Positions 7,151 to 27,612 of a stretch of 41,011 nucleotides of DNA are shown here, piece by piece. Location of the stretch: contig JACQJF010000052.1 of NCBI GenBank assembly GCA_016198165.1, positions 1 through 41,011 on the forward strand. The letters are read 5' to 3'. Origin of the DNA: Candidatus Iainarchaeum sp. GTDB lineage: Archaea > Iainarchaeota > Iainarchaeia > Iainarchaeales > GW2011-AR10. Each line of letters opens with the position of its first letter. Position 1 is the stretch's first letter. The notes under the pieces are model-generated. The model worked only from the letters and a program-made list of their open reading frames with translations, was not told where the DNA came from and searched no databases. A program made the translations under genes and the position numbers.

Positions 7151-8341
7151 TCAGTGGTTTACATAAAACAATATCGTTGGGAGTATGAGGAATGCCATGC
7201 AGCAGCTCCGGTTGACTTTGCTTGAAACCGCTAAAAGCCCGATGCAGGTTGCAGTCAGGAGCGCGATTAACCCGAGTGGGCCGGCAAGCAGGAGAATCAG
7301 TGCGAGTATGAATGCAAGCGTTGCCCTGGTCAGGAGGGCGTAGTCTGTTTTTTCGAATTTTTTCACGGCGTGGCCTGCGATTATTTCGGTTGCAAGGCCC
7401 GCTAGTCCGCCTGCCGTGACTGCGGCTGCCATTGCAAAGAAGAGTGTTTCGCTTGTGAGCGGGAGTGCCTGTTTTACAAACACTGCCGTGCCTGTGCGCG
7501 TTTTGCCTATGAAGTAAAGCGCTGCAATGCTTGTCACATAGTTTGCTGTCGTGATTCCGCCTGTTAAAAGGAGGTAGCGGGTGCGGCTTGGCTTTGCCGA
7601 GAACTCGCTTGAGGCAAGGATTGCCTCGTTTGGCCCGATGGCGGGCAGGAACACCGTGAAGCAGGAAGCGATGCTTGACAAGAACCCGGCTTTGAGTGCT
7701 TTTCCCGAGTGGATTTTTTTTGCCGCGTAATTTTGTTTTGGGAGGGCGCTTTTCTGTGAAAGGGCAATGAGGAGCATGGGCATAGTGAAAAAACCGGTTA
7801 CGAGTACGAAGAGGTTGCTTTGGAAAAGCGAGTTGTTCAAAAGCGCTGCACCGCTCAGGCCTGCAAGGGCGACAACAAGGAGTGTGAGCAGTTTTTTCTC
7901 CAGGGTTTTCTCCCTCGCTATCATGAAAACGAGGATTCCTGCAAGGGCAACCGGCGTGAGTGGGGCAAAGTCATTGAAAGTTTTTTCAAGCAGTTTTCCC
8001 ATGAACGGTGTCAGTGCAACTGAAAACAACAATGCGGAAAGGCCGCCTGCTATTGTCAGCCTGATTGCGTGCAGAGCCATGCCTTTTTTTGCAAAAAAAT
8101 GCCCGGGTAGCACTGCGAGGGCCTTGTCCTCGCTTGGGATTCCAAGGAGCGTGGCTGGGATAAAGTTGACAAAAGAGTGTGTGATGCTTAAAGCAATGAC
8201 TCCGAAGGCGAAATCTGCCTGGGTTTGTGCGGGAAGCGTGAAAAACAGTGCAAGCAGCGTGTTCACGTGCAGTCCCGGGACAAGGCCTGTCACGAGGCCT
8301 GCTCCGACCCCCAAAAGAACCACGAGGATTGTTTCACTCAA
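7151..8341 (-). CDS. TctA/DUF112 family polytopic membrane protein
   Basis: GLVTGLVPGLHVNT, HSFVNFIPATLLGIP, VLPGH motifs; many TM helices; no TctB/TctC nearby. Confidence 0.85.
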   Translation of the reverse strand: MSETILVVLLGVGAGLVTGLVPGLHVNTLLALFFTLPAQTQADFAFGVIALSITHSFVNFIPATLLGIPSEDKALAVLPGHFFAKKGMALHAIRLTIAGGLSALLFSVALTPFMGKLLEKTFNDFAPLTPVALAGILVFMIAREKTLEKKLLTLLVVALAGLSGAALLNNSLFQSNLFVLVTGFFTMPMLLIALSQKSALPKQNYAAKKIHSGKALKAGFLSSIASCFTVFLPAIGPNEAILASSEFSAKPSRTRYLLLTGGITTANYVTSIAALYFIGKTRTGTAVFVKQALPLTSETLFFAMAAAVTAGGLAGLATEIIAGHAVKKFEKTDYALLTRATLAFILALILLLAGPLGLIALLTATCIGLLAVSSKVNRSCCMAFLILPTILFYVNH

Positions 8342-8699
8342 TTTTTTCCACTTCTTGCGCGATTATTTCCTGCTCGTTCTCGTATTTTTGCGCCCTTCCA
8401 ATTACGCGCACAAAGCCTATGGTGCCTGTTGCCTTGAGGTCCTCTTTTTCCGGGTTGAATTTCACGATTTTTATGCTTCCTGTGTGGTCTGTAAGCGTGA
8501 AAAAAAGGGTGTTTTTTGACACAAAGGCATTGGTTGCTTTGCCTTCAAGCAGGGCTTTTTTGTTCTCGGAAAGCTCGGAAGCCCCGGTGGCAGTTGTTTT
8601 TACAGGCTGGCTCTGCAGGTCCGCCAGAAAAAGGCCTGCCATCCCGATTAAAGAAACCACCGCGAGTGCGGCCCTGAGGTGGGAAGGTGAAATGTGCAT
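8334..8699 (-). CDS. Membrane-anchored OB-fold nucleic-acid-binding protein
   Basis: N-terminal TM; LFFTLTDHTGSIKIVKF...VRVIGRAQKYENEQEIIAQEVE, typical of RPA-like OB folds; overlaps the tctA-like start. Confidence 0.8.
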   Translation of the reverse strand: MHISPSHLRAALAVVSLIGMAGLFLADLQSQPVKTTATGASELSENKKALLEGKATNAFVSKNTLFFTLTDHTGSIKIVKFNPEKEDLKATGTIGFVRVIGRAQKYENEQEIIAQEVEKIE

Positions 8700-8736
8700 T
8701 CAGAAGAAAATGGTGCAGAAAAACAAATAAAAAATA

Positions 8737-8752
8737 TTCGTCAATTGACGAA
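8737..8752. promoter_or_regulatory. Palindromic operator TTCGTCAATTGACGAA, copy 1
   Basis: Perfect 16-bp palindrome 38 nt upstream of the ATG at 8699, next to an A/T-rich TATA-like stretch; identical copy at 25251. Confidence 0.75.
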
Positions 8753-8785
8753 AATAATGTTAATGTTTCTTTTGCCGGTTTGTTG

Positions 8786-8886
8786 CGGACGCAAGTTTGG
8801 CTTTAAGCCAAACAGCGGTGTGAACGGACGCAAGGGCTGTTGAGCGAAGCGAAACGCCCGCGGTGTGAACGGACGCATACCGTTCA
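8786..8886. repeat. Mini direct-repeat array with hairpin spacers (REP-like)
   Basis: GCGGTGTGAACGGACGCA at 8815-8832 and 8860-8877, partial CGGACGCA at 8786; spacers GTTTGGCTTTAAGCCAAAC and a GCGAAGC-containing hairpin. Confidence 0.75.
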
Positions 8887-9234
8887 TGGGCACGTGTCTG
8901 GCAGAGTGCCGTTCATGGTAAGTTCAACGTTTAGCCCTGAGGCCTGTTCTGCCTGGGTTTCCATGTTTTCCAGTTCCTGCCCCAGGTCCAGCCCTTGTGG
9001 GAGTGTCTGGAGGTTTATGTTCATTGTAGCCCCGCATACAAGATATTCGAGTTTTTCCGTCATTGCGTTTTGGTTCAAATCGGAGGCTTTTTCGTAGAAG
9101 CTTTCTTTGACGGTTGCAAGCGCGACAGTGGTTTTTGAAAGGCTTGAAAATTCCCCTGCAATGAAAATGGTTAGTATGAACACTACGGGGAGCGCCAGGA
9201 GGAATTCAATGCTTGACTGGCCTTTTGTCATCAT
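8884..9234 (-). CDS. Class III signal peptide pilin
   Basis: TKG/QSSIEFLL. Confidence 0.85.
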   Translation of the reverse strand: MMTKGQSSIEFLLALPVVFILTIFIAGEFSSLSKTTVALATVKESFYEKASDLNQNAMTEKLEYLVCGATMNINLQTLPQGLDLGQELENMETQAEQASGLNVELTMNGTLPDTCP

Positions 9235-9275
9235 GCGGCAATCAACTTTCCATAGAGCAATTTTTTTTTCCCAGT

Positions 9276-9794
9276 TTATGTTTCTATGTTTCCGGTAATC
9301 GTGACTTCGGCGTCGTTTTTTTCCACTTTCACGCCGGTGATTTTGCCCTTTTCATCCCCCCAGATGGGGAAGCTTCCGAGCGTGCACGTGAAATTAAAGC
9401 CGCTTACCGTGTTGAAATCCTTTGAGCACTCGGTTCCTTCAGGCATCTCATTTCCGCCGTCGCGCTCATCACACGCATAAACGGGTATTCCGAGGGAAAG
9501 GTTGTAGTCAAAAGATATTGTCGCTGGCATGCCGACCGAGGTGATATTGCAGTCTATAAATGTCCGCGCGGGGACGTAGACCCTGATTGTCTGTCGTGTT
9601 TTCTCGCCGCTTAGCGCCACTTCGTTTGCGGTGCTGAGGATTTTTTCCGCTGCAAGCCTTGCCTGGCTGATGCCTGCTATTTCTTTTGCCGTCTTTGCTG
9701 ACAGGTCGACGTTTGGGAGGATTATGACGGTGATGTATAAAAGCATGAGGCTGATTATCAGCAGGTATTCTATGGAGATTTGTCCTTTCCGCAT
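9276..9794 (-). CDS. Class III signal peptide pilin
   Basis: MRKG/QISIEYLL; start at 9794; Cys-containing domain. Confidence 0.85.
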   Translation of the reverse strand: MRKGQISIEYLLIISLMLLYITVIILPNVDLSAKTAKEIAGISQARLAAEKILSTANEVALSGEKTRQTIRVYVPARTFIDCNITSVGMPATISFDYNLSLGIPVYACDERDGGNEMPEGTECSKDFNTVSGFNFTCTLGSFPIWGDEKGKITGVKVEKNDAEVTITGNIET

Positions 9795-9798
9795 TTTT

Positions 9799-10908
9799 TC
9801 AGAACACCACGTTAAGCACAATATCGCCGGTTGCCTGCAGTATGATGTATGCTGCAAGTATTGCGGGCACAAAAGGCGTGCTTTCCTTTATCCTGATTTC
9901 TTTTTCGATAAGCCCCATTGAGGCAAGTTTCTGCAGTTCATTTATCTGTTCAAGCGTCAGGCCGTCTGCCTGTGAGCTTGAAACGATTGTCCTTGCGCTT
10001 GGAGCCAGCATTTCTTTTAGGGCCTCTACATTATTTTCCTTTACGTGCTTTAAAATGCTTTTGATTGAAAGTTTTTGTTCTGTGACCCGGCCGTTTTTTT
10101 CCACGAGCGTGACTGCGGTAATCATGCCTTCCTCAAGCTCATTTACCATGATTTTTTCCCCAAGGCGGGTTCTTGCAAAAAAAAGAAGCTTCACGATTGA
10201 AACAAGTGCTGTTCCGAGCGTGAAAATGAATCCTGCCTCCACAAGCACCGAGTTGTCAAGCAGGAACCCTGTTGCGAAAAGGGCAAGGGAAATTGGCTTG
10301 GAGGTTTTTTTGGCGAAAAAAAACAGGCAAAGCATTGCGGCAATGGCTGCCCAAAAAGGCAGGCCGAGGTTTCTTGCAATCGTGTCTGTTCCTGCTGCGG
10401 CCAGGGCAAAGAAAAAGGACGTAGTGGCTGTTTTTGCGAGTGTTTTTTTCAGCTCGCCTATGGCCTGCGTGTCTTTGGCGGTTTTTTTGAGTGCAATTAG
10501 GGTCCCGAGGGGGAGCATGGCGTAGACGCTGTAAATGAAAAGCGACAGTGAAAAGATTGGCAGGGCCGTGGTTGAAAACAGTTCCCCCTGCAACCCAAGG
10601 AGGTTTCCAATGGCCCTGTGGTTGACGGGGTTGAGGGCTGCAATGCCCGTGAAGAGTTTCACGTCCCCGCCTGCCCAGAAGCCGAGTTTCCAGAGCGCAA
10701 GTGAGCCTGCAAAAGTCGCAGCTGCCGCAAGGAAAGAGTTAATCGCGTACGAACTGTCCCCTGTAGAAACCGAGTAAAACGCGCTTACACCCAACCCAAT
10801 TATTATCATGCCATAGGAAACCCAGTCCGAGACGATTCTTTCCCGCAGGTCAGTGTAGGTTGCAATCAGCAAGCCGGCAAGTGTTATAGTGAAGAGTAAA
10901 AGTTCCAT
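9799..10908 (-). CDS. Prepilin peptidase (A24), EppA-like long form
   Basis: ATYTDLRERIVSD, WAGGDVKLF (GxGD), extra TM helices, ELEEGMI, PFVPAI. Confidence 0.9.
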   Translation of the reverse strand: MELLLFTITLAGLLIATYTDLRERIVSDWVSYGMIIIGLGVSAFYSVSTGDSSYAINSFLAAAATFAGSLALWKLGFWAGGDVKLFTGIAALNPVNHRAIGNLLGLQGELFSTTALPIFSLSLFIYSVYAMLPLGTLIALKKTAKDTQAIGELKKTLAKTATTSFFFALAAAGTDTIARNLGLPFWAAIAAMLCLFFFAKKTSKPISLALFATGFLLDNSVLVEAGFIFTLGTALVSIVKLLFFARTRLGEKIMVNELEEGMITAVTLVEKNGRVTEQKLSIKSILKHVKENNVEALKEMLAPSARTIVSSSQADGLTLEQINELQKLASMGLIEKEIRIKESTPFVPAILAAYIILQATGDIVLNVVF

Positions 10909-11064
10909 AATTTTTCAACTTATTTATTCTTTGGCCGCAAGCTTTTAATTCATGAACGGAGAGCGGGAACTGTTTTTTCCCTGGCCAGACGTTTCAAAAA
11001 TCAGTTGTTCAATCCTTTTGCCCCTGGAAAGAAATCACGCGTTAAAAATGCTATGCGTAATTTA

Positions 11065-11352
11065 TTAATCTGCGTTTGGGGGTGTGCAAAGTGATTGTGC
11101 TTCCACTTCGCATGCGTTTGTAGTTATGGGCCAGACACAATCACATGACGTTGAACCGACAACTACTTCGGAGTTCCCGCACGCCGCTTGGGTCTTGAAG
11201 CCGGCGCATAATGCTTTGATTGCGTTGTATTCTGTCTGTTTTCCGCTTGCAGAGCCGACACTTGTTATTATCGTTATTACAATGACTGCGACGAGTATTG
11301 CTCCGCCGATAAGCAAGAGGTACTCAAGTGCTCCTTGTCCTTTTTTGTTCAA
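11065..11352 (-). CDS. Probable major pilin, paralog 1
   Basis: KKG/QGALEYLLLIGG; short Cys-rich head; paralogous to 11713-11994. Confidence 0.9.
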   Translation of the reverse strand: MNKKGQGALEYLLLIGGAILVAVIVITIITSVGSASGKQTEYNAIKALCAGFKTQAACGNSEVVVGSTSCDCVWPITTNACEVEAQSLCTPPNAD

Positions 11353-11452
11353 AATTCAACGCCTCTTTTCTTGTAGTATAATGGACAATTGTGGTATAAA
11401 AACCTGCCTGATTTACCTTACAGTTTTTTTTAGTTGCTCCCAAAGATTGGTG

Positions 11453-11620
11453 TCAGGTCATTATCGCTTCTATTGTGGATGCCCTGTTGTCGAGTATTTT
11501 TGTTTTCACTACAAGTGTGATATTGACAACCTGCAGAGCGACTATGATTACAGCCGCGATTAATATGAGCACGAATGAAAGGGTCAATAGGTATTCAAAT
11601 GAAACTTGTCCGCGCGGCAT
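11453..11620 (-). CDS. Minimal 55-aa pilin, absent from the ORF track
   Basis: Manual translation: MPRG/QVSFEYLLTLSFVLILIAAVIIVALQVVNITLVVKTKILDNRASTIEAIMT*. Confidence 0.85.
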   Translation of the reverse strand: MPRGQVSFEYLLTLSFVLILIAAVIIVALQVVNITLVVKTKILDNRASTIEAIMT

Positions 11621-11712
11621 TTTTTTTCACCAAAAAAAGAAAAAAAGAAAAGGAAGAAATTTTTTCCAAGGGTTTTTTTCTTCCAATATTTCGCTATGAA
11701 TAAATTTTTTTA

Positions 11713-11994
11713 TTAGTCGCCTGCTACACAACTTGCTTGTGGTGTTTCCACGGCGCAAGAAGTGGTCCATATGCAGTCACAAGATGTACTCCCAACTAGT
11801 ACTTCTGCGGCTGTGCAGTTTGCTTGGGTTGCTTTTGAAGCGCATATTCCGCTGATTGCGTTGTATTCTGTCTGTTTTCCGCTTGAGCCTCCCACCTGTG
11901 ATAGTATTGTTATTACTACGACTGCGACTAGGATTGCCCCTCCTATCAGGAGGAGGTATTCTAGTGCTCCTTGTCCTTTTTTGTTCAAATTCAA
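11713..11994 (-). CDS. Probable major pilin, paralog 2
   Basis: KKG/QGALEYLLLIGG; GGAGG-like RBS upstream; Cys-rich head. Confidence 0.9.
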   Translation of the reverse strand: MNLNKKGQGALEYLLLIGGAILVAVVVITILSQVGGSSGKQTEYNAISGICASKATQANCTAAEVLVGSTSCDCIWTTSCAVETPQASCVAGD

Positions 11995-12092
11995 AACCTC
12001 CCTTTTTCACCTTTTTTTTTGAAGCTTATTTTTTAACCGATAAGCTTGAATTGATGATAAACATGGTTTTTCAAACTATTATTTAAGTCTTT

Positions 12093-12341
12093 TCATTCGC
12101 CGACTTTTTCGGTTGTCTGCTCTATGCCTGTCCTGACTTCCCCTTGCTGGGTGTTGAAGATGTTTTTAAGCGTGATGCCGACAATCATTGCAAGGACAAC
12201 CGCGCCACCGATTAGCAAGAGGGTTTCGACGCTTGCCTGGGCTCTTTTTCCAAGCGGGCCCTTGCGCGAGCCCGCGGCGCGTACATGCCCTGTTTTCAAC
12301 AGGGCGGTAGTATTGTTTTCCATGCCGTCACCAAATTTCAT
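12093..12341 (-). CDS. Short pilin
   Basis: KRA/QASVETLLLIGG. Confidence 0.8.
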   Translation of the reverse strand: MKFGDGMENNTTALLKTGHVRAAGSRKGPLGKRAQASVETLLLIGGAVVLAMIVGITLKNIFNTQQGEVRTGIEQTTEKVGE

Positions 12342-13285
12342 GCCCCGCCTACAAGTGCCTTTGAAAGGACGCTTGAAGCCGTGTAGGACAGGATTGCAAT
12401 AAACAGTATGATTGGGAAGTATATAATGGTTTTGGAGAGCCTTCCTTCCCTCATGAGCGCCATCATTGCGCTTGCGGCTATTACCTGTGCAACCATGTAA
12501 AACTGCACCCCCAGGTTAATCGTCTCGGCGGCCTTTTGTGCGGCAAGTTTTTCCTCCGGCTTTCCAATGGATGCCGCGGCGTTGATGAGGACGTTGCTTA
12601 TCGTGCCTACGAAACCGAAAATCATTGGAGCCACCACCCCGCCGGCTGCGGTCATGAAAATCACTTGGAGCAGTGTCCTTGTTTTCCTTTCCCTGCCAAT
12701 CTTGTGGGTTTCCCGGACATCGTCGCTGATTTCATCGAGTATTTCCGCAAGCCCCGCCCCTGCCTTGATGGAGTCGATTATTATGGTCACGGTCCTGTTT
12801 ATTATGCGGGAGTCAACGTTGTCCGAAAGGGTCGTCAGGGCGTTTGAAAAATTCTCTCCCTCTTCGAGTTTTCTCAGTATCTCGATGAGTTCTTTTTTGA
12901 GCGGCCCGTACTCGGAGTATGCCACTTCGCGCAGGGCAAACTCGATTGTCCCGCCGCTCTTGAGCGTGTCAGACATCTGCTTTAGGGCATCCGGTAGGTT
13001 TTCCTCTATGCTGTCTACCCTTTGCACTGCTTTTATGTAAGGGTATCCAAGCAGCAGGTCAAGGATGACGATTGTCGTCCCAAAGCCGATGAGCAAAAAC
13101 CCGGGGAGGTAAAAATAGAACATGGCTCCCGCAACCGCGGCTAAAGCCAGGCTTAGCGCTATCCAGATGACCGCGTCTATTTCCAGTTCTATCTGGTCAA
13201 ACATTCTCTGGTACTTTTTCAACGCCCCAATCCGGTTCAAGAACGGGGCCCTGTATGCGAGGTTTAGTGACATTTTTTTTTTCAC
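12338..13285 (-). CDS. Type IV pilus platform protein (T2SS-F/TadC-like)
   Basis: IEENLPDALKQMSDTLKSG...YGPL...GAGLAEIL. Confidence 0.9.
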   Translation of the reverse strand: MKKKMSLNLAYRAPFLNRIGALKKYQRMFDQIELEIDAVIWIALSLALAAVAGAMFYFYLPGFLLIGFGTTIVILDLLLGYPYIKAVQRVDSIEENLPDALKQMSDTLKSGGTIEFALREVAYSEYGPLKKELIEILRKLEEGENFSNALTTLSDNVDSRIINRTVTIIIDSIKAGAGLAEILDEISDDVRETHKIGRERKTRTLLQVIFMTAAGGVVAPMIFGFVGTISNVLINAAASIGKPEEKLAAQKAAETINLGVQFYMVAQVIAASAMMALMREGRLSKTIIYFPIILFIAILSYTASSVLSKALVGGA

Positions 13286-14451
13286 ACGCTTGGCTGTATT
13301 GATTTTATGTAATAAATGAGAAACCCTAGGATTCCCGGGAATATCATGGTATATAATGCAAGGATTATTGATGGCGGCATGCTGACACTTGCAATCGGCA
13401 GTCCAAGCGGCGCGTTGAGGATTGTCCCGATTATTGCAATGAATACGGGGATGACGATGGCGCCGAAAATGAATATTACCCCGAAAAAGTTCATTTTTTC
13501 GGCAAAGTCACGGATGCTCAGCTGCAAGTCAAATGACACGTCTTCTGCTATTTCGTTCATGACGTTTGAAAGCTTTCCGCCGGTCTTTAGGGCCCTGATG
13601 ATGTGGAACAAGGCGTTTCGCAGTGACTTTGACTGTGTGCGCAGGGCAAAGTGGCGCAGTGCCTCTTCAGTCCCGGTGCCCTCCTCGATTTCGTTGATTG
13701 TCCTTGCGAACTCCACTGACAACAACCCATAGTTGCTTGAGGCGATTGTTTCAAGTGTCTTGTAGAGGCTTATGCCGGCTCGAAGCTCGGTTGACATGTG
13801 GCGAAGCGCAAACGGGAGTTCCCTGCTTATTTCTTTCCCGCGTTTTTGTGCAATGCTTTTCGGAATCATTAGCACCATTATCAGCGTGAGGAAAAACATT
13901 CCAATGCCTATCGCAAAAGCCAGTGCGATGTCGAATTTGAGTGCAATGCTTGCCACAATTCCAATTGCCGTGGAAACAACAAACGCGAGGCCTGCAATCG
14001 TTACCGAGAGCGCAAGGTACTGCCTTGCGGAATAGTTTACGTTTGCACTGTACAGGTAAAACGCGAGTTCCTTTGAAATGGGGAACCTTTTAACCCCGCT
14101 GATTAATGGTTCAAGGAGGAGCCGTGTTGACAAAAAAATCCTTCCAAGCGTGCTTACAAGCGGGGATTTTATCTCTATGAGCTCTTCAACCGGTTGTGTC
14201 GAGACTTTGACGCTTTCTGTTCCGCTGACCATTCCGCGCAGTTCGTAAATGCTTTCTTTTGCCGGCTCCTGGGCTCTTCCTTCTTCGCGGTATTTTTTCT
14301 TCATTTCGGAGACAATCTTGTCCACTGTTTTTGGGTCAATCCTTAACTGTTCCTCCTGCTGTTCTTTTTTCTGTTTTTTTGATTCCTCGATTTTTTTCCT
14401 GATGTCTTCAAAATTCATTTTTTTTTCAGCCTGTTGGTTTTTCCTTGTCAA
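13282..14451 (-). CDS. Type IV pilus platform protein (T2SS-F/TadB-like)
   Basis: ISRELPFALRHMSTELRAG...YGLLS...LKTGGKLS. Confidence 0.9.
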   Translation of the reverse strand: MTRKNQQAEKKMNFEDIRKKIEESKKQKKEQQEEQLRIDPKTVDKIVSEMKKKYREEGRAQEPAKESIYELRGMVSGTESVKVSTQPVEELIEIKSPLVSTLGRIFLSTRLLLEPLISGVKRFPISKELAFYLYSANVNYSARQYLALSVTIAGLAFVVSTAIGIVASIALKFDIALAFAIGIGMFFLTLIMVLMIPKSIAQKRGKEISRELPFALRHMSTELRAGISLYKTLETIASSNYGLLSVEFARTINEIEEGTGTEEALRHFALRTQSKSLRNALFHIIRALKTGGKLSNVMNEIAEDVSFDLQLSIRDFAEKMNFFGVIFIFGAIVIPVFIAIIGTILNAPLGLPIASVSMPPSIILALYTMIFPGILGFLIYYIKSIQPSV

Positions 14452-16132
14452 TAAAATCGAGGCACATTTGTGTCACCTTGTCCATTGCGTGCGTTTCGTT
14501 GTCTATAAGTTCCTTGAGGAATTTTTCCCTTTTCTTTATTTCTTTTTCCACGCTGTCAACCGTTTTTCCGGAAAATATCGCAACCGCCTTGAGGTACTCT
14601 GAAGAGTTTTTTGTCCTTGAAATCGAGTCGCTTGCAGGGTCATACTGGAATATGGCCACTGTCTTGGTTTTCCCTTCAAGGCTTCCGGCGACTTCGGCTA
14701 TTTCCGTTACCCTGCGTATTGTCCCTTTTTTCTTGTCATGCAGCCTGTGTTCAACGAGGATGAAATCAAGCCCGCTGAGCATGACTTCTGGCACGTTCAT
14801 GGGCGGTGAAACCACTCTCACCACGGTTTCTCTTGGGGAGTTGGCGTGTATGGTGCCAAGGCAACCGGAATGACCCGTGTTAATTGCCGTGAAAAACGTG
14901 AAGGCCTCTGCGTGCCGTATTTCCCCGACGATTATCCTATCGGGCCTCATCCTCAGAGAGTTTTTTGTGAGAATGTCAAGTGTTATTTCCCCCTTGCCTT
15001 CAAGCCCGGGTGGTTTTCCCTCAAGCCTTATCCAGTGTTTTAACGGCAGGTTGAGTTCAGCGGTGTCTTCAATGCTTATTATCCTCTCATAGGGCGGGAT
15101 GAATGCAGCCAGGGCATTGAGGCTTGTGGTTTTTCCACTCCCCGTGCCCCCTGAAATCAGTATGTTTGCGGGTTTTACATTGAGTCCTTCCACGCAGAGC
15201 CACAGGAATGCCCCGACTTCCGTGTTTATAGTGTTTGAGGTTATGAGGTCAATTATGCTGTAGGGGTCTTTGCGGAATTTCCTGATTGTGAGTGTCGAGC
15301 CGTCAACTGACGCGGGTTCAACGGTCGCGTTCACCCGGCTCCCGTCAGCCAGCCGCGCGTCAAGCATTGGGGAGCTTATGTCCACGCGCCTTCCCACGAG
15401 CCTGGCAATCCTATTGACGAGGTCTATTATTTCCTGGTCCGAGTAGAACTCGATGTTTGTGGTCATCATTTCGTATTGCCTGTGGAAAATGTAAACAGGT
15501 TTTTTCGGGCCGATTACCATTATTTCCTCTATTTTGTCGTCGTTTACAAGCGGGTCTATCAGGCCGTATCCGACCATTTCGCGGACCACGGATTCCGCGT
15601 AAAATTCCCACCTGTGCTGGGGTATTCCAAGTTGTGGAGAGTTTTGTAGTATTTCGATTACTTTTTGGTAGTAGACGTTCCGCCTTTCCTGCTGGTCGCG
15701 TATCTTGAAAGGCGCAATTGTAATGAGGCGCGTGGCGGCTTCCTTTATAGTGTTGATTATCGCTTTTTCCGCGGCGGTGGGCCTTGGGACAGGGGTCGTG
15801 TATTCGGGGATGAATTCGCCCTGTACCGTGTATATTTTTGCGTTTCCATAGGACGTGACCAGTTTTTTCTTCCGGTTGTCCTTTTCCTGCTCCCGTGCCT
15901 CTTCAACCTGGCCCTGGGTTAGTGTTTCTGCGGCACCTGTCTTTTGTGCAGGTTTTGGCTCTTCAGCCTTTTTGAAGATTTTTTGCTCTTTTTCGCCTTT
16001 TTTTTCCTTGGAAAAAATTTCAGGGATTTTTTCTTCTTCCGGTTCCACTGGTTTGGGTTCGCCTGCTTCCTGTTCTGCAAGCCTTTTTTTCTTTTTTATC
16101 TTTTCAATCATTTCATCCATGTAATTAGGCAT
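14426..16132 (-). CDS. Type IV pilus assembly ATPase (VirB11/TadA/CpaF family)
   Basis: GGTGSGKTT, IEDTAEL, LRMRPDRIIVGEIR, NTGHSG...TIHA; start uncertain. Confidence 0.95.
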   Translation of the reverse strand: MPNYMDEMIEKIKKKKRLAEQEAGEPKPVEPEEEKIPEIFSKEKKGEKEQKIFKKAEEPKPAQKTGAAETLTQGQVEEAREQEKDNRKKKLVTSYGNAKIYTVQGEFIPEYTTPVPRPTAAEKAIINTIKEAATRLITIAPFKIRDQQERRNVYYQKVIEILQNSPQLGIPQHRWEFYAESVVREMVGYGLIDPLVNDDKIEEIMVIGPKKPVYIFHRQYEMMTTNIEFYSDQEIIDLVNRIARLVGRRVDISSPMLDARLADGSRVNATVEPASVDGSTLTIRKFRKDPYSIIDLITSNTINTEVGAFLWLCVEGLNVKPANILISGGTGSGKTTSLNALAAFIPPYERIISIEDTAELNLPLKHWIRLEGKPPGLEGKGEITLDILTKNSLRMRPDRIIVGEIRHAEAFTFFTAINTGHSGCLGTIHANSPRETVVRVVSPPMNVPEVMLSGLDFILVEHRLHDKKKGTIRRVTEIAEVAGSLEGKTKTVAIFQYDPASDSISRTKNSSEYLKAVAIFSGKTVDSVEKEIKKREKFLKELIDNETHAMDKVTQMCLDFIDKEKPTG

Positions 16133-16174
16133 AAACGCGTCTAAGATTAGACGCAATTATGATATTTAATAATA

Positions 16175-19259: not shown

Positions 19260-19295
19260 AAACTCTTTTACCATTTTTCCATCCCTCATTTTTTC

Positions 19296-20543: not shown

Positions 20544-20557
20544 ACGCGGGGCAAAAT

Positions 20558-21728: not shown

Positions 21729-21733
21729 TTTTC

Positions 21734-22306
21734 ATGAACCGGGATAACGCGTTAAAGATTGGCTTTGTTTTCATTGTCAGTTACGTTTTTTTGTTCGTGC
21801 TTTCATCGCTTAGCGACCTGACCGGTTTTCGGAAATGGGGTTTGACAACGGATATTTTCCGCCTTGACTACATGTATGCCCTCCTGCCTGTCGCAGGCTT
21901 TTTCTTCATGTTTTTCCTTGTTGACTGGATTGAGTCTTTTTTTGAAACAAGGTTCACGCGCACGCCGTGGTTTGGGGTGTTTGTCCTCGTGATGGGCATT
22001 GTGGCTTTCTACATTGCGTCTTTCTGGTTTTTCTGCAACGTTTTCGGGTTTTCGACAAATGAGGCGTGCGGTCAGCAGGGTGCAAAGAACACTCTTGAGT
22101 ACCTGTCTGCAAATGCTGATACCAGAAACGTAATCATCGGCTTTTTGTCAGGCTTGCCGGGGGTAGGGCCTTTTTTCGGGTCTTTTCTGGGCACGAATTT
22201 TTTCAGGCTTTTTCTGGAGAGCGCCTTTGTTCTTTTCCTGCTTTCGGCAGTTTTCGGCTGGGCGGCAAGACTTATTTACTTTAAGCTTGAAGGGGCAAAG
22301 GCTTAA
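21734..22306 (+). CDS. Hypothetical integral membrane protein
   Basis: About 4 hydrophobic helices. Confidence 0.75.
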   Translation: MNRDNALKIGFVFIVSYVFLFVLSSLSDLTGFRKWGLTTDIFRLDYMYALLPVAGFFFMFFLVDWIESFFETRFTRTPWFGVFVLVMGIVAFYIASFWFFCNVFGFSTNEACGQQGAKNTLEYLSANADTRNVIIGFLSGLPGVGPFFGSFLGTNFFRLFLESAFVLFLLSAVFGWAARLIYFKLEGAKA

Positions 22307-22374
22307 ACCACTCCCCGTTATTGCGGGGGTTTTTTAAAAGTTTTCGAGGAATTGTTTTTTTTGGGGTTAAGGGG

Positions 22375-23112
22375 GTGTCGTTTATTTTCAGGACTGCGTT
22401 GAAGCTTTATTTTTCAAACATTTCAAGCGTGCTTGGGTTTGGGCTTCTCCTGGTTTTCGTGCTTTTTTTTCTCGGCATGCAGGGGGTTTTTACTTCAAGC
22501 GGCTCGATTTTTTTCACTTATGCTGTCCCGGCTGCCGGGTATCTCGAATCCCTGATTTTTGGCCTCGTGTTTCTTGGGTTTATTTTCGCATACTCGGTTT
22601 TCACAATCACGGTTGTGTTTGCGGTGCGCTCACAGCTGAGCCGGGTAAAACTCCACTATTATTTTTCCGAGAAAATAAGGCGGTTTGCAGTCAAGTATTT
22701 CGTTTTTCTGGCCTTGTTTTCGCTTGCATCATTTTTCCTTTCCGTTCTTTTGGGGTTTGCAGGGTTCAAGGCACTGGGTTTTCTTCTTTCAGCCGCCGTA
22801 GTGTTCTTCCTCATGTTTTTGCCCCAGGCGATAGTTGTTGACGAGGAAAGCATGCAGTCATCACTGCAGAACGCATTTGAGTTTTCATTGAAGCACAAAA
22901 AAACGACGTTCCTGGTTTTTTTGTCAGCCCTGTTGGCTGTTTTTGCCCTCTCGGTTTTGGAGTTTGCCCTCAACGTGTTTTTGCTTCCGGGTGAGTTTTT
23001 GTCGCTTCTTGTGGTTTCATTTTTTCTTGTCCCGTTTATCGAGGTTGTCAAGACTATTTACTACATGGAAAAAATGGGCCTCGTGAAAAACGTTTCACTG
23101 AAACTGCAGTGA
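22375..23112 (+). CDS. Hypothetical polytopic membrane protein
   Basis: About 6 TM helices, FLPQAIVVDE...SLQNAF pattern; GTG start at 22375 assumed. Confidence 0.7.
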   Translation: MSFIFRTALKLYFSNISSVLGFGLLLVFVLFFLGMQGVFTSSGSIFFTYAVPAAGYLESLIFGLVFLGFIFAYSVFTITVVFAVRSQLSRVKLHYYFSEKIRRFAVKYFVFLALFSLASFFLSVLLGFAGFKALGFLLSAAVVFFLMFLPQAIVVDEESMQSSLQNAFEFSLKHKKTTFLVFLSALLAVFALSVLEFALNVFLLPGEFLSLLVVSFFLVPFIEVVKTIYYMEKMGLVKNVSLKLQ

Positions 23113-23118
23113 GTTTTG

Positions 23119-24630
23119 TCACTCTCTTTTTTCAATGGTGCAGGCAAGCGCGTTTTTTGAGAACAATGACTCCATTTCGTCCGCGTCCATGGCGTGAAAG
23201 TTTTTCTGCAGGCCATTTTTGAGCAGCCCCATGTTTTCCTCAATCCCTGTTTGCCAGTCGCTTTCAATGAAAATTCCTGTGCCGCTTTTAAGCGCTTTTT
23301 TCGCCTCCGCGGAAATAACTGAAATTTTTTCCGCGAAATTTTCCGGTTTTTGGGCCCTCACAATTATCGCGTTGTCGCATTCGGGTGTTGAAATTCTTTT
23401 TTCTTTCTCCGAGAATGCCTCCTGCAGGGCTTTGAGCGCCGCCAGCATATCTTCTTTCGGGCTCCCTGCTTTTTTGTCGAAAAACTTTTCCTGGAAAAGC
23501 TCTGCTGCCATGCCAAGCGTGCTGGTGCTACCGTGGATTTGCTCCGTGAACAGGAATTTTTTCTGCTTTTGGCAGTTGAGGAAAATCATGGAGTGTGTTT
23601 TCTCGAAAAGTTTAAGCTTGTACCTTGAATCGATTGCCGCTGCCAGGGCAAAATGCCTGCTTTTTCCTGCCTGGAACGCTTTTGCGAAATGTTTTGCGAA
23701 CTCGACTGCTTTTTCTTTTTGCCTTTGCGGCATTTCCGTTTCCTCGCCGGGGGACATGTTGAGCGTGACTGCCGGAGTGAAATGACCGGTGTTATGCATG
23801 TACGACTGGTTGAGCTGTTCAAGCGCGAACACTGCGGTTGCTTTTGTTTCAGCCGCGCTTTTTTTTTCAAGTGGTTTTGCAAAAAACTCGTTTAATCCCC
23901 TGAGGGCCGGTTGGATTGTAGTATTTTTTGCCTGTGTGAAAAAAATTCCCTGCAGTTCGAGGAAAGAGAAAGGATGGTTTTTTTGCGCGCAGGGAAGCAA
24001 GAAGGACGCGGCGAAAGGTTTTGTCGAGTAATCGTGGATGCCGTGGAGAAATATTTTCTGCTTGAAGTGAAGCTCTTTTGCTTTTTGTGGCACTGCCGCA
24101 AGCCAGTTGTACTGCCTTGAAATCTCGTTTTCGGGCACTGCTTCTTTTGCAGTAATTTTTTTTTCGGCGTCAAAAACGGGGAGCCCGAGCCTTGAGTACC
24201 GGTAGTATGTTTTTGTCTGCCCGAATTCAAGTAGTTTTTCTGCAGCCATGTCCCGTATAAGTGAAGTGGTGAAATATCGTGTTCCGAGCGTTTTGAGTTT
24301 TTCCTCGACTTCGGAGCTTATTTTTTCCGCCAGCTGCCTATTGAGCCGTGTTTCATTCACAAGCGACTTGGTTATGTTTCCCCTGTTGAATGGCTCAAGC
24401 TTTTCTTTTGAAGTGAAAACCCTCATTTTGCGGAACGAATAGAAGACTTTTGCCGCGTCAGGGTTTATTTTTTTCAGCTGTTCGAAAGCGTTTTTGAGGG
24501 TCTGTTTTTTGTCAAGCTCCAGGCCCTTTAGCTGCTGGATTATCTTGAGTATTTCCCATTTCGTGGCTCCGGCTTCCTGGAACTCTTTTGCGATTTTTTC
24601 AATGAACGGGTTGACAAGTTTTTCAGGCAT
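23119..24630 (-). CDS. ATP-cone protein related to class III ribonucleotide reductase NrdD, apparently inactive
   Basis: RVFTSKEKLEPFNRGNITKSLVNET...TTSLIRD...YSRLGLPVFD matches the archaeal NrdD N-terminus; no glycyl-radical loop or Zn CxxC pairs at the C-terminus. Confidence 0.7.
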   Translation of the reverse strand: MPEKLVNPFIEKIAKEFQEAGATKWEILKIIQQLKGLELDKKQTLKNAFEQLKKINPDAAKVFYSFRKMRVFTSKEKLEPFNRGNITKSLVNETRLNRQLAEKISSEVEEKLKTLGTRYFTTSLIRDMAAEKLLEFGQTKTYYRYSRLGLPVFDAEKKITAKEAVPENEISRQYNWLAAVPQKAKELHFKQKIFLHGIHDYSTKPFAASFLLPCAQKNHPFSFLELQGIFFTQAKNTTIQPALRGLNEFFAKPLEKKSAAETKATAVFALEQLNQSYMHNTGHFTPAVTLNMSPGEETEMPQRQKEKAVEFAKHFAKAFQAGKSRHFALAAAIDSRYKLKLFEKTHSMIFLNCQKQKKFLFTEQIHGSTSTLGMAAELFQEKFFDKKAGSPKEDMLAALKALQEAFSEKEKRISTPECDNAIIVRAQKPENFAEKISVISAEAKKALKSGTGIFIESDWQTGIEENMGLLKNGLQKNFHAMDADEMESLFSKNALACTIEKRE

Positions 24631-24756
24631 CCATTGATTTGTTGGAAAACTTAATTAAAAACATGACACGCAAAAAACCCGCTTAAGTTTGCAAACTTTT
24701 TATTAATTGTTTGTTCAATTAGTTAATCATTTGGTTTTTGTGGGGGGGATTTTTTT

Positions 24757-25233
24757 TTGCCTGTGTCTGAGCTTGACAAGATTGACCTGCGTATTCTTCA
24801 GAGCCTTCTTTATGACGGCAGGATTTCTTTCAGTGCCATTGCAAAGGAGGTCGGCCTGACTGACGTTGCTATCAAGAAGCGTTTTGAACGCCTCAAGCGC
24901 AAGGGCGTTATAGCGTCAATTTCGGCAAACCTTGACCTCAAGACGCTTGGGTATGAGAACCCTATTTTTGTCCAGATTCGTTCAGAGATTTCAAAAAACA
25001 AGAATCTGGTCAAGAGGCTTCGGGAGTTTGACTCGATTGTGGAGCTTTACCAGGTTCTTGGGGAATACAACCTGCTTGCAAAACTCGTGGTCCCAAACCT
25101 TGAAATGGCTGAAAAATTCATCGAGTCGCTTGGAACACTTGACGGCGTTTTGGACATAAAGGCATCGGTAATCCTTTCTGAACTGAAAAAAACCAATTCC
25201 CTGCCGATTTTTTCGCTCCAAAAAAAACTCTGA
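24757..25233 (+). CDS. Lrp/AsnC family transcriptional regulator
   Basis: LDKIDLRILQSLLYDGRISFSAIAKEVGLT...RFERLKRKGVI; RAM domain VLGEYNL. Confidence 0.93.
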   Translation: MPVSELDKIDLRILQSLLYDGRISFSAIAKEVGLTDVAIKKRFERLKRKGVIASISANLDLKTLGYENPIFVQIRSEISKNKNLVKRLREFDSIVELYQVLGEYNLLAKLVVPNLEMAEKFIESLGTLDGVLDIKASVILSELKKTNSLPIFSLQKKL

Positions 25234-25250
25234 AAAACCCCACAAGCCTA

Positions 25251-25266
25251 TTCGTCAATTGACGAA
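25251..25266. promoter_or_regulatory. Palindromic operator TTCGTCAATTGACGAA, copy 2
   Basis: Identical to copy 1; followed by AAGCTTTTTAT; ATG 35 nt downstream. Confidence 0.75.
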
Positions 25267-25300
25267 AAGCTTTTTATTTTCTTTGGCTCACCGTTTTTTC

Positions 25301-25480
25301 ATGGTTTCTAGGTTTCATTCAAGGGCACAGGTTTCAGTGGAACTCATAATAATTTTTGCCGCGGTGGTCGCAGTTGCCCTGCTCCTCATAACACAACTCC
25401 AGAAGACAACCAAGGAGGGTTCTGAAGTCATTGAGGACAAGGCAGAAGACATTTTTGACCAGATAAGTGACATAAAGTGA
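25301..25480 (+). CDS. Short pilin
   Basis: SRA/QVSVELIIIF; ATG at 25301. Confidence 0.85.
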   Translation: MVSRFHSRAQVSVELIIIFAAVVAVALLLITQLQKTTKEGSEVIEDKAEDIFDQISDIK

Positions 25481-25899
25481 GTGCAGGGAAAGCCCAGTCA
25501 AGCATTGAGTTTCTAATGCTTCTTGCAGCGTCCACGGCAGTCCTGCTTGTCCTCGTCGGGGCCTCCAAGTCAGTGTTTTTTTCCGGGCTTTTTGCACTTG
25601 ACATCCAGACAGCGCAGGGTTTTCTTTCCGAGCTGAACGCAAAATCCGACATGCTCTCTTTTTTCGGCGAAGGCTCAATCCTTCAGGCAAAGGCGAGTTT
25701 TTTCGGTTCCGCGAGGATTTTTTCAGAAGATGGTTTTGTCCTCATCGAGGTAAAAAGCCCGGTTCTTGTGCAGTCAAAACTTCTTTCGCAAAAAACTTCA
25801 ACCGATGTAAACGCTTTTGTCCCTGAAACAAGCGGGCCTGTCAGGGTTGAACTGGTGCGCACAGGGACGGGAGTTTTAATCAAAGACGGTGACCCTTAG
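25477..25899 (+). CDS. Class III signal peptide pilin
   Basis: GKA/QSSIEFLML; GTGA overlap with the previous gene. Confidence 0.85.
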   Translation: MSAGKAQSSIEFLMLLAASTAVLLVLVGASKSVFFSGLFALDIQTAQGFLSELNAKSDMLSFFGEGSILQAKASFFGSARIFSEDGFVLIEVKSPVLVQSKLLSQKTSTDVNAFVPETSGPVRVELVRTGTGVLIKDGDP

Positions 25900-26226
25900 C
25901 CTGACTGGTTTGAGGTTTTCGTCAAGGAAAAAAGTTTCGGAAGAAAACGCCTTTGCCCCGTGGGGGTTTCCTACGGGAATTTTTTCCTCTCCCGCAATTA
26001 TCTCGCCGTTTTTTTCGCCAAAAGCCAGCCTGAAATCTTTTCTCAACTCTTCTGGTGAAACAATCTTTTCTGCCTGCCACACTGCCAATAGGTCGTGGGT
26101 TTTCTGTGCAATTGCAAGGCTTGTGAAATTGTTCATTTCAGGTGCCTCAAGCGTGGAAAGAAAAACAACGATGACGATGAACCCGAGAATGCAGTCAAAA
26201 AGCGCATAATGGCCGTGCCTATCCAC
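25876..26226 (-). CDS. Putative minor pilin-like protein
   Basis: MDRHG/HYALFD then a hydrophobic helix. Confidence 0.55.
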   Translation of the reverse strand: MDRHGHYALFDCILGFIVIVVFLSTLEAPEMNNFTSLAIAQKTHDLLAVWQAEKIVSPEELRKDFRLAFGEKNGEIIAGEEKIPVGNPHGAKAFSSETFFLDENLKPVRLRVTVFD

Positions 26227-26686
26227 AGGCAGTCACCTCAAGGAGAATTTTCTCATTTTTTTCCAAGTCTACGATGAATCTCTGTGCGGCAAGGCATTCT
26301 GCAAAACTTGTTTTGCCGTAATCAAAGATTGTTTCCTTTTCCCCGTTTTCATGCACCGCCTCTACTTTTTTCACGGTAACTCCTGCGATTTGCGCGTGTT
26401 CCCTGCCTGCATTTCTGAGTGCCTCAAGTGAAATGACGTTTGCCCTCACGCGCCCAAGGAGGGGGTCAAAGACTGCCGCGCCCAGAAAAGGGTTTTCCGT
26501 GTTGTGGTTTTTCACCATTGCGTCTGCAAGGAAGATTGTTTTTCTCCAAAACTCGGCGTTTTTTTCGTTTGCAAGCGTTTTTCCAGCCAGGCTGCTTACC
26601 GAATGAATCATTGCCATGGCTATGAACAGCATGCCGATTAATGCAAAAGCTCCCTGGAAAGAAAAAAGCCCTCCTTTATCCCGCAT
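26219..26686 (-). CDS. Putative minor pilin-like protein
   Basis: MRDKG/GLFSFQG then a hydrophobic helix; ATG at 26686. Confidence 0.6.
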   Translation of the reverse strand: MRDKGGLFSFQGAFALIGMLFIAMAMIHSVSSLAGKTLANEKNAEFWRKTIFLADAMVKNHNTENPFLGAAVFDPLLGRVRANVISLEALRNAGREHAQIAGVTVKKVEAVHENGEKETIFDYGKTSFAECLAAQRFIVDLEKNEKILLEVTACG

Positions 26687-27023
26687 AGTGTGCCTCCACT
26701 TCAACTTCGATTACAACGCCGTTTTCGTTTGTAGAGATTTTTTTTGCAGGCGCGATTGTCATGGAATTTTTGGCAAAACCGTTTTTTGCCGCCCATATTT
26801 TTTCATCTGCCGCGTGGCATTCTGTTTCAAGCTCCGCGAATTTTCCCCCGCTGTTTGCATAAAACGAGTCGATGAGTGCTGCGCATTTTTCCGCCTCCAC
26901 CTTTGCCCCAAACGCGTAGAACGCGCCTTGGGTTTTTTCATGCAGTGTCGTGGCCGCCTCAAGCCCGAATCCTGTTACAAGGAGCACGATTATTGCCGAC
27001 ATTGTAAAGTCAATGGTGTTCAT
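26676..27023 (-). CDS. Putative pilin-like protein lacking a basic leader
   Basis: MNTIDF then a hydrophobic helix; ATGA coupling with the upstream gene. Confidence 0.55.
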   Translation of the reverse strand: MNTIDFTMSAIIVLLVTGFGLEAATTLHEKTQGAFYAFGAKVEAEKCAALIDSFYANSGGKFAELETECHAADEKIWAAKNGFAKNSMTIAPAKKISTNENGVVIEVEVEAHYAG

Positions 27024-27562
27024 TTGAGGGCCACTACCGCTGCCATTGAATAGCCGATGGGAAGCATGAATTCGGTTGAATAATTCGGCCCGCTTATCCG
27101 TGCCTTGAAATGCGTGTCCCGCAGAATTCCTCCTGTGAAAAAAAACCATGCAGTGGTGATTCCTTCTTCGCTTATGACAAGGACTGAAGAGGATTCTCCC
27201 AGGATAGTGTCCGAGATTTTTTCTTTTGCCCCATGTTTTTCAATGAAAAATTCCGCTTTTATGCTGCCTGAGTCAAACAGGCCCTGTTCAGAAAGCCAAA
27301 TGATTTTTTCCACTGTTTTTTTCTTTATTTCTTGCGCGTCAAGGTTGTTGTTTTTGATTTCGTTTTCAAGCGCGGTTTTCACCGTGTCGTCGAAAATGTT
27401 TTCCATCTGGGTTCTTGTGAAAGTGACTTTCTCCATTTCAAGTGCCTGTGTCAGGACAGTGTCTGCTTGTTTTTCCGCGTTAAAGCGCGTGTTTTGAAGC
27501 GAGATTGTCGCAGCCAGTGCCGCAAGGGCAATTACTGCAAAGGAAAACCCGCGCCGGTTCAT
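27020..27562 (-). CDS. Putative minor pilin-like protein
   Basis: MNRRG/FSFAVIAL; ATG at 27562. Confidence 0.65.
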   Translation of the reverse strand: MNRRGFSFAVIALAALAATISLQNTRFNAEKQADTVLTQALEMEKVTFTRTQMENIFDDTVKTALENEIKNNNLDAQEIKKKTVEKIIWLSEQGLFDSGSIKAEFFIEKHGAKEKISDTILGESSSVLVISEEGITTAWFFFTGGILRDTHFKARISGPNYSTEFMLPIGYSMAAVVALK

Positions 27563-27596
27563 CCATGGACTAATGCCTGAAAACAAACTTAAATAT

Positions 27597-27612
27597 TTCG
27601 TCAATCGCCGAA
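27597..27612. promoter_or_regulatory. Palindromic operator, copy 3 (TTCGTCAATCGCCGAA, 2 mismatches)
   Basis: 35 nt upstream of the ATG at 27562, abutting a minus-strand ATATTTAAG TATA-like box. Confidence 0.65.

Follow-up and report, generated by a model that had tools for sequence, protein, structure and literature searches.

A 16-bp palindrome at pilin and OB-fold/TctA-like operons of a DPANN archaeon: a candidate regulon and its possible link to DNA uptake

Gene content and promoters of the locus

The DNA considered here is a 41,011-nt stretch of Candidatus Iainarchaeum sp. (GenBank assembly GCA_016198165.1, contig JACQJF010000052.1; below, "the window"), which is contig C15 of a 961-kb, 66-contig assembly of this DPANN archaeon that is 67% complete. 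Our subject is a 16-nt palindrome, TTCGTCAATTGACGAA, with perfect two-fold symmetry (half-sites TTCGTC and GACGAA around a 4-nt center). It stands before three operons of the window, one encoding an OB-fold protein, a TctA-like membrane protein, and a JAB-type metalloprotease, the other two encoding pilins or pilin-like proteins, and before two genes elsewhere in the genome. The copies, which we treat as putative operators, and the genes that they would serve are listed below (positions are those of the window unless another contig is named; aa, amino acids; HTH, helix-turn-helix).

8737-8752: copy 1, exact, assigned to the minus-strand OB-fold/TctA-like/JAB promoter
8700-8736, minus strand: TATA-like box of the OB-fold/TctA-like/JAB operon, with presumably a short leader or none
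8334-8699, minus strand: OB-fold protein, 121 aa (PF01336, E 1.5e-8), with one N-terminal hydrophobic segment at residues 10-28
7151-8341, minus strand: TctA-like polytopic membrane protein, 396 aa (PF01970, E 9.8e-35), with ~10-11 hydrophobic segments in a crude hydropathy scan
6767-7132, minus strand: JAB/MPN metalloprotease-like protein, 121 aa (Prok-JAB, E 2.2e-14)
25251-25266: copy 2, exact, assigned to the plus-strand short-pilin operon
25301-25480, plus strand: 59-aa Flp/Epd-like pilin with a class III signal peptide (PF04021, E 1.2e-6), lacking a globular domain
25477-25899, plus strand: 140-aa pilin, N-terminus ...GKAQSSIEFLMLLAA, no Pfam match, co-linear with the 59-aa pilin in relatives
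27597-27612: copy 3, two mismatches, both in the promoter-distal half, assigned to the minus-strand pilin-like operon
25876-27562, minus strand: four-gene pilin-like operon (180, 157, 161, and 116 aa as listed; where the inner three genes really start is uncertain)
C33:23287: third exact copy in the genome, 34 nt ahead of the GTG start of a gene for an 832-aa lipoprotein
C22:6553: second copy with two mismatches, 33 nt before the ATG of the next gene
C22:6602-7300: XRE-type HTH regulator, 233 aa, with a C-terminal DRTGG-like domain (HTH_3, PF01381, E 8.6e-8; HTH matches in PDB)

The OB-fold and TctA-like genes overlap by 8 nt, the latter encodes the sole TctA match in the genome, and the JAB protein has an intact JAMM motif (E...HSHP-x7-S-xx-D, read by eye). 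An earlier reading of the window from its letters only (the sequence-only reading) had named the three operons as targets of one operator and an adjacent Lrp/AsnC gene as the nearest candidate for its regulator. Pfam backs the OB-fold, TctA, Prok-JAB, Lrp/AsnC, and class III pilin assignments. The four pilin-like proteins, by contrast, have neither a Pfam nor an NCBIfam match, and their description as pilin-like comes from an N-terminal K/R/H-G followed by a hydrophobic stretch.

Rarity and promoter geometry of the palindrome

The sequence-only reading had placed the palindrome at 8737 and 25251 (exact) and at 27597 (two mismatches), with its edge 38, 35, and 35 nt from the A of the ATG and directly before a TATA-like stretch. 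The window scan returned the same positions, and the spacing and the TATA-like stretch are as described. At up to three mismatches the window contains four matches versus 0.29 expected, and none of 100 shuffles got to four. Genome-wide, there are three exact copies, none with one mismatch, two with two, and four with three; simple arithmetic gives ~2e-4 exact copies expected by chance.

The geometry of these sites is fixed. Read on the minus strand, copy 1 is followed by TATTTTTTATTT, and the ATG at 8699 lies 37 nt past the motif end. At copy 2, TTTTTATT begins 5 nt past the motif and the plus-strand ATG is at 25301, 34 nt past the motif end; copy 3, on the minus strand, reads TTCGGCGATTGACGAA and then ATATTTAA, with the ATG at 27562, again 34 nt past the motif end. 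Across the three window copies, a T-rich TATA-like box (TTTTTATT or ATATTTAA) thus begins 1-5 nt past the motif. All five exact or two-mismatch copies in the genome have a TATA-like box directly after them and a start codon 33-37 nt downstream, a spacing from which the five mRNAs are apparently leaderless or nearly so. When all genomic sites with the proximal half at up to one mismatch are listed, only these five promoters also have an AT-rich box and, 33-37 nt away, a start codon. The promoter-proximal half, TTGACGAA, is identical at all five, and substitutions are confined to the distal half. At the promoter of the XRE-type gene, a copy with three mismatches lies 41 bp further upstream of the site at C22:6553. 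Other three-mismatch matches, at 34239 (inside a coding sequence), C29:3420, and C39:60, were dropped as intragenic or lacking the TATA and start-codon geometry.

An abundant motif without positional bias had been set beforehand as grounds for giving up the idea of a shared operator; the opposite was found, a motif that is rare and positionally fixed genome-wide. One could still ask if the copies arose by chance or are left over from a repeated or mobile sequence. Nothing beyond the repetition itself speaks for this, and we regard it as refuted, given the expected number of exact copies. Moreover, an alignment of the promoters shows likeness in the motif and the TATA/T-rich block only, and the upstream flanks are unrelated, so the copies are not a dispersed repeat. 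The motif also keeps its position before orthologues in many genomes with coding sequences that are just 30-40% identical. These observations support, at the level of sequence, a real cis-element common to the OB-fold/TctA-like/JAB operon and the two pilin operons.

Between copy 1 and the last pilin-like gene of the adjacent pilus cluster, the spacer (~8796-8877) has a feature of its own, a direct repeat, CGGTGTGAACGGACGCA, present twice ~45 nt apart, together with a third, GCGGACGCAAG-like piece.

Conservation in related genomes

Conservation was evaluated in an order sample of 41 genomes (own genome included) and a phylum sample of 121 genomes, with the reversed pattern as control. In the order sample, at up to one mismatch, 12 of the 41 genomes have the motif, versus 3 genomes for the control. 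The phylum sample has 40 motif sites in 20 of its 121 genomes, versus 9 control sites in 8 genomes. Counts anchored on orthologues (own genome excluded; sites ending 25-60 nt before the start; half-site defined as T[TC][GA]ACG[AT]A) are as follows.

OB-fold promoters: 16-mer at up to three mismatches in 10/25; proximal half-site in 13/25
Lipoprotein promoters: 16-mer in 10/27; proximal half-site in 8/27
XRE promoters: 16-mer in 5/28; proximal half-site in 22/28
M50 protease promoters: 16-mer in 3/27; proximal half-site in 4/27
Lrp promoters: 16-mer in 0/29; proximal half-site in 0/29

At individual loci, the motif is found 30-40 nt before OB-fold orthologues (G002, G018, G032, and G039 of our numbered genomes), before the pilin-like operon (G001, G003, G004, and G027), and before lipoprotein orthologues (G001, G003, G018, and G039), and it lies 32-36 nt before short-pilin orthologues in five relatives (G001, G002, G003, G018, and G039). 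The four-gene operon is kept together with the motif in G001, G003, G004, G018, and G027. Further sites precede PIN-domain genes (G018 and G029) and, in G018, a GIY-YIG gene that is followed by an HTH-only paralogue of the XRE protein. Conservation upstream of orthologues, a test that the sequence-only reading had named, is thus seen in related genomes of several families, and in other families many promoters have a variant, CAATCAACGAA, or no site. We read the regulon as real but only partly conserved.

The gene order is also kept. The TctA-like gene is present in 39 of the 41 genomes of the order sample, it follows an OB-like open reading frame (ORF) in 25 of the 28 loci that could be evaluated, the present one among them, and the JAB gene lies downstream of it in 24 of 29 loci of relatives. 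In at least 17 relatives the order is peptidase, pilin-like gene, motif, OB-fold, TctA-like, JAB. In one AT-rich relative (G038; GC ~25%), the TctA-like match (G038:C1:491479-492651, locus L329) contains five in-frame TAG codons, which could be a sign of a pseudogene or of TAG reassignment.

The putatively motif-controlled lipoprotein, which has a lipobox, is one ORF of ~1300-1440 aa in most relatives. In the present genome it is split into ORFs of 832 and 513 aa, 83 nt apart (C33:19129-23252; locus L058:5130-9253); the split could be real, or it could reflect a frameshift or an assembly error.

Candidate regulators

The gene that had been proposed to encode the regulator lies beside copy 2:

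24757-25233, plus strand: Lrp/AsnC regulator (Lrp/AsnC domains by Pfam)

Its ORF does end 18 nt before copy 2, as the sequence-only reading stated. In addition, G018 has an Lrp-like paralogue ~300 nt upstream of the motif that precedes its lipoprotein gene, the Lrp orthologue is as widespread as the XRE protein (39 of 41 genomes of the order sample), and the Lrp-like CsmR, encoded beside filament genes, is reported to control a type IV filament of Haloferax volcanii (bioRxiv 10.64898/2026.02.03.703544). However, the role proposed for the gene is not supported by comparison. A pilin follows Lrp in just 4 of 30 loci, all in one family, and its constant partner is a divergent ATP-cone gene; the motif is in none of the Lrp promoters counted above, and the exact motif at the XRE orthologues of Methanolobus (see below) has no Lrp counterpart. 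Lrp promoters share a different palindrome, GAAAAGC(A/T)AACTTTTTAT, that overlaps the TATA box (window ~24640-24756; loci L092-L119) and is probably a separate, auto-regulated Lrp operator. We consider it improbable that the neighboring Lrp/AsnC protein binds the 16-bp palindrome.

The XRE-type protein is a better candidate. Its orthologues are found in 36 of the 41 genomes of the order sample with 62-97% identity (40% in G012); for the TctA-like proteins of these genomes the figure is 25-43%, the closest genus-mate excepted. The HTH region is almost invariant, and the recognition helix, SSSTISDYEGGRR, is near-invariant. An argument from co-variation of helix and site was dropped, because the helix is invariant while the sites vary between CAATTGACGAA and CAATCAACGAA. 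In most relatives, the promoter of the XRE gene keeps the site, mostly as the proximal half-site, and isolated distal half-sites are seen ~40 bp upstream. In two genomes in which the XRE gene was not found (G007 and G038, one of them a 94%-complete single contig), there is no motif at the OB-fold, lipoprotein, or M50 promoters.

The protein family is pan-archaeal by Atlas; it has no NCBIfam equivalog, and NCBIfam gives only weak matches in the HTH region. A fold model (pLDDT 86.9) has an N-terminal part nearest to SinR, C.BclI, and P22 c2, and a C-terminal alpha/beta domain nearest to DRTGG (2ioj, TM-score 0.69 on target) and the HPr-kinase N-domain, with E-values of at least 1e-3 for all fold matches.

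Evidence from a second phylum comes from a scan of named genomes for the exact motif. It returned at least 118 stretches, mostly chance bacterial matches (~140 are expected by chance in 596 Gb), and among the matches listed are several 'Candidatus Iainarchaeum' records, two Methanolobus genomes, and Haloferax. Each of the two Methanolobus genomes has the exact 16-mer 49 nt ahead of an orthologue of the XRE gene (45% identity) and ~10 nt upstream of the TATA box. TTCGTC-N4-GACGAA occurs just twice per Methanolobus genome, both times at the XRE locus and 269 bp apart; the second site is inside the divergent gene of a Cas4-like PD-(D/E)XK nuclease, where it encodes SSKDE (L129:344-613, L156:804-1088). 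The XRE orthologue of Haloferax mucosum (41% identity) has TTCGTCAGGCGACGAC upstream. A sample of 201 Halobacteriota genomes contained matches with up to one mismatch in nine genomes, and three of the nine have the motif directly before the XRE orthologue.

A site that is kept before one regulator family in two phyla is best explained by auto-regulation, and this makes the XRE-HTH/DRTGG protein the best candidate for binding the palindrome, an assignment that we consider likely.

Two genomes of the Halobacteriota sample (loci L320 and L321) have a palindrome with one mismatch between the gene for a DUF5371 mini-protein and a conserved 345-aa gene. This may be another target of the XRE factor family, or a mobile element.

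Mode of control and composition of the regulon

A dimer of the XRE-DRTGG protein would be expected to bind just upstream of the B recognition element (BRE), slightly overlapping it; one helical turn separates the half-sites, a spacing seen with dimeric HTH proteins. At XRE promoters, the weaker second site could allow cooperative binding, perhaps via the DRTGG-like domain. The TATA 8-mer starts 3-5 nt past the motif, which would place the presumed BRE partly over the proximal half-site (its last 2-3 nt) and the factor directly upstream of TFB, a position typical of archaeal TFB-recruiting activators (Ptr2, TFB-RF1). The same position is also compatible with occlusion of the BRE, i.e., repression. 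The distance of the Methanolobus site from its TATA box favors activation. On this basis we lean toward activation; repression is a less probable choice that should be kept in mind, and dual control would be surprising.

An alternative that needs no dedicated regulator is that the element is an extended promoter element, an unusual BRE that is read by a TFB paralogue and defines a class of promoters. The palindrome does abut the TATA box, a BRE-like CGAAA is found at the end of the invariant half, TTGACGAA(A), and the distal half is more variable. However, the element has perfect two-fold symmetry over 16 bp. The Methanolobus site stands off from its TATA box rather than abutting it, one of the Methanolobus sites is inside a coding region, and distal half-sites occur in isolation at XRE promoters. 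We find this explanation very improbable.

If the XRE-DRTGG protein is the binder, the promoters under its control would be those of the OB-fold/TctA-like/JAB operon, the short pilin with the second pilin, the four pilin-like genes, the ~1400-aa lipoprotein, and the regulator's own gene. The pilus machinery itself is encoded next to the first of these:

8884-16156, minus strand: core Epd-like 'system 1' pilus cluster, operator-free at up to three mismatches

In addition to the genes for a T2SSE ATPase and an archaeal A24 prepilin peptidase, the cluster contains two for T2SSF platform proteins, three for class III pilins, and two more that are pilin-like. This agrees with the description of Epd-like 'system 1' filaments in the accessible text of PMC13705601, where class III pilins go together with a dedicated class III signal peptidase, an ATPase, and the products of two platform-protein genes. 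The sequence-only reading had remarked that the motif is missing before the core ATPase operon, and indeed no copy with up to three mismatches precedes the 8.9-16.2 kb cluster. Because no site precedes the genes for the ATPase, both platform proteins, the peptidase, or the other pilins, the regulon would be a conditional add-on set, which would supply conditional filament subunits and a membrane module to a standing pilus machinery. It should be noted that the loci are not really "dispersed," as the sequence-only reading had it: the OB-fold operon directly follows the pilus cluster, both here and in the relatives that share its gene order. With the prepilin peptidase and pilin-like genes just upstream of its promoter, this operon is physically joined to the pilus cluster, whether or not the operator is considered.

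Elsewhere, two T2SSE-type ATPase genes besides that of the window score above the Pfam cut-off (C17:3588-4100 and C52:3793-4377), so that the genome may encode more than one type IV filament-like system.

DNA uptake as a possible output

The OB-fold/TctA-like pair has a genetic precedent. In Methanococcus maripaludis JJ, in-frame deletion of MMJJ_13020 (OB-fold, one transmembrane [TM] helix) or MMJJ_13030 (TctA-like, 11 TM helices) abolishes transformation, with complementation, and transformation of Methanoculleus thermophilus likewise depends on a TctA-like homologue (PMC10133366). The type IV-like pilus and pilin expression are needed in M. maripaludis as well: pilus genes dominate the screen, in which an M50 peptidase was hit once, and pilin expression turns a non-competent strain competent (PMC10133366). 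In the accessible text of that paper, regulatory control of competence is suggested only, neither the transporter nor the regulator is established, and a cis-element is not described.

The pair described here resembles MMJJ_13020/MMJJ_13030 in that the two genes are adjacent, belong to the same two Pfam families, and encode one TM helix in the OB-fold protein and ~11 in the TctA-like protein, and the present genome likewise encodes an Epd-type pilus, while a search of it for ComEC found none. It differs in that a JAB gene follows, the pair joins the end of the pilus cluster, and an operator is shared with pilin genes. Given the same families, adjacency, and architecture, DNA uptake is the best-supported output of the regulon, and we would call its chances about even. 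The earlier proposal of a DNA-uptake regulon is thus partly supported: the regulon and the link to DNA uptake stand, the Lrp part does not. Taking operator, binder, and output together, we favor, with moderate confidence, a small regulon under a palindromic operator that is bound by the XRE-DRTGG protein and serves DNA uptake. In the literature searched, there is no description of the motif, the XRE factor, or an archaeal competence regulon, and the main text of a 2016 pilus census (PMC4858521) mentions no TctA, OB-fold, JAB, M50, HTH, or DPANN, although its supplements could list them.

A competing explanation is that the regulon drives the attachment or host-contact apparatus of an episymbiotic DPANN cell (adhesive pilus, giant lipoprotein, and TctA-type solute importer) and not DNA uptake. 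Epd pili are described as adhesion pili (PMC13705601), and tricarboxylates are the substrates of the bacterial TctA family (PMC10133366). No nucleic-acid-related domain, no Pfam family, and no usable Atlas match were found for the ~1400-aa lipoprotein, and genes for DprA and nucleases were not found in the 67%-complete genome. However, the partner of the TctA-like protein is a nucleic-acid-type OB fold (PF01336) and not TctB/TctC (no search was made for these; archaea are described as lacking clear homologues in the accessible text of PMC10133366). Transformation needs the OB-fold/TctA-like pair in M. maripaludis and a TctA-like homologue in a second methanogen genus, as noted above, and in other lineages the operator stands before nuclease genes (Cas4-like, PIN, and GIY-YIG). 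On balance, we think that attachment is an unlikely output.

Several other observations weigh against the regulon with DNA uptake as output and the XRE-DRTGG protein as binder. First, the palindrome is patchy: it is in 0/13, 0/11, and 0/15 genomes of families f3, f27, and f30, and a recognizable full site is missing from about half of the OB-fold and lipoprotein promoters. The end of the proximal half-site, CGAA(A), resembles a generic archaeal BRE, which may inflate the half-site counts. Second, the reversed control pattern also matched nine genomes of the Halobacteriota sample, so that only position is informative there. The site before the XRE gene could equally make that gene a target of another factor. 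In Methanolobus the site was found only at the XRE locus, and the TctA-like gene there has neither an adjacent OB-fold gene nor a site; a link of the XRE protein to DNA uptake may be specific to the DPANN lineage. Third, the likeness to MMJJ_13020/MMJJ_13030 is one of Pfam families, adjacency, and TM architecture, not of sequence-level orthology. Two homology searches (one with the TctA-like protein, one with a 12-row profile) returned DPANN proteins, a Haloarcula protein, and bacterial TctA proteins, and no methanogen protein. The score of a predicted complex of the OB-fold and TctA-like proteins was not specific versus one control, so we give it no weight in either direction. Finally, searches of the 67%-complete genome for DprA, a staphylococcal-type nuclease, and ComEC, including its competence domain PF03772, found none of them.

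A bolder version of the DNA-uptake regulon holds that the XRE-DRTGG protein and TTCGTC-N4-GACGAA are an ancient pan-archaeal pair and the master switch of natural competence in Iainarchaeota-type DPANN. We offer this as speculation that is probably not correct as it stands. If it were true, OB-TctA-JAB would be a translocon analogous to ComEA/ComEC, the Flp-like pilin and the four pseudopilins would form a DNA-capturing filament, and the ~1400-aa lipoprotein would be a surface DNA receptor. Genome-reduced archaea would then be naturally transformable, feeding on or recombining foreign DNA.

DNA uptake in archaea is an open question, and the sole genetic screen points to the OB-fold/TctA-like pair and the pilus. 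The present locus would be the first testable regulatory link between the two, in the form of a 16-bp site and a candidate factor with orthologues in tractable methanogens and haloarchaea. It also brings together putatively co-regulated candidates with no known role: the JAB protease, the four pilin-like proteins, the giant lipoprotein, and possibly the M50 protease. Very small DPANN genomes almost always keep OB-TctA-JAB beside pilus genes, which fits a dependence on external DNA or nucleotides and hints at natural transformation as a genetic tool to try in uncultivated DPANN lineages.

Other genes next to the pilin operons

Beyond copy 3 lies a gene for a membrane protease:

27625-28272, plus strand: M50 site-2-type protease (PF02163), divergent neighbor of copy 3

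The M50 gene is present in 37 of the 41 genomes of the order sample, always divergent to a pilin operon or (in G029) to the OB-fold operon. We dropped it as a firm member of the regulon because so few of its orthologue promoters (see the counts above) have the 16-mer at the canonical distance. The adjacent minus-strand gene (28269-33371) encodes a 1700-aa CDC48/VCP-type AAA ATPase in which two stretches match an intein-splicing domain and two a LAGLIDADG homing-endonuclease domain, which suggests two inteins in this gene.

Comparison with known systems

Bacterial competence regulons are organized around shared sites, such as the ComK boxes of Bacillus, the CRP-S sites used with Sxy/TfoX in Haemophilus and Vibrio, and the cin-box of ComX in Streptococcus. 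There, one factor and one shared site co-induce specialized pilins and a DNA receptor and channel (ComEA/ComEC) in addition to other functions of the cell, and the regulon proposed here would follow the same plan. It would differ in its archaeal BRE/TATA promoters, in its candidate XRE-DRTGG factor, and in having OB-TctA-JAB instead of ComEA/ComEC, with competence as the presumed output. ComEC itself consists of an OB-fold domain, a polytopic competence domain, and a metallo-hydrolase domain. The three-part logic of OB fold, polytopic membrane protein, and zinc hydrolase recurs here as three adjacent genes, by analogy only: there is no homology, and JAB has an isopeptidase-type fold, not that of a beta-lactamase-type nuclease.

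Among archaeal regulators, EarA (Methanococcus and Pyrococcus) and CsmR (Haloferax volcanii) bind just upstream of the BRE of filament genes, as the XRE-DRTGG protein is predicted to do. According to the accessible text of the sources, the CsmR site is a semi-palindrome, TATCA-N4-TGATA, ~10 nt upstream of the BRE, and it shares with the present palindrome the 4-nt spacing and a dispersed regulon. EarA is a winged-helix protein and CsmR is Lrp-like; both recognize other motifs, and the targets described for them in that text are archaellum and chemotaxis genes, not pilins or OB-TctA.

The closest parallels for the candidate factor itself are SinR, the controller C-proteins of restriction-modification systems, P22 c2, and the 434 repressor, with which it shares the HTH_3 domain, a putative palindromic operator with half-sites one helical turn apart, and apparent auto-regulation. 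Here, a C-terminal DRTGG-like domain replaces the usual oligomerization domains, the promoter context is archaeal, and the family is uncharacterized. The mechanism that we propose from these sequences, in which an HTH factor acts through a palindromic operator at a promoter of archaeal type, is of a known kind.

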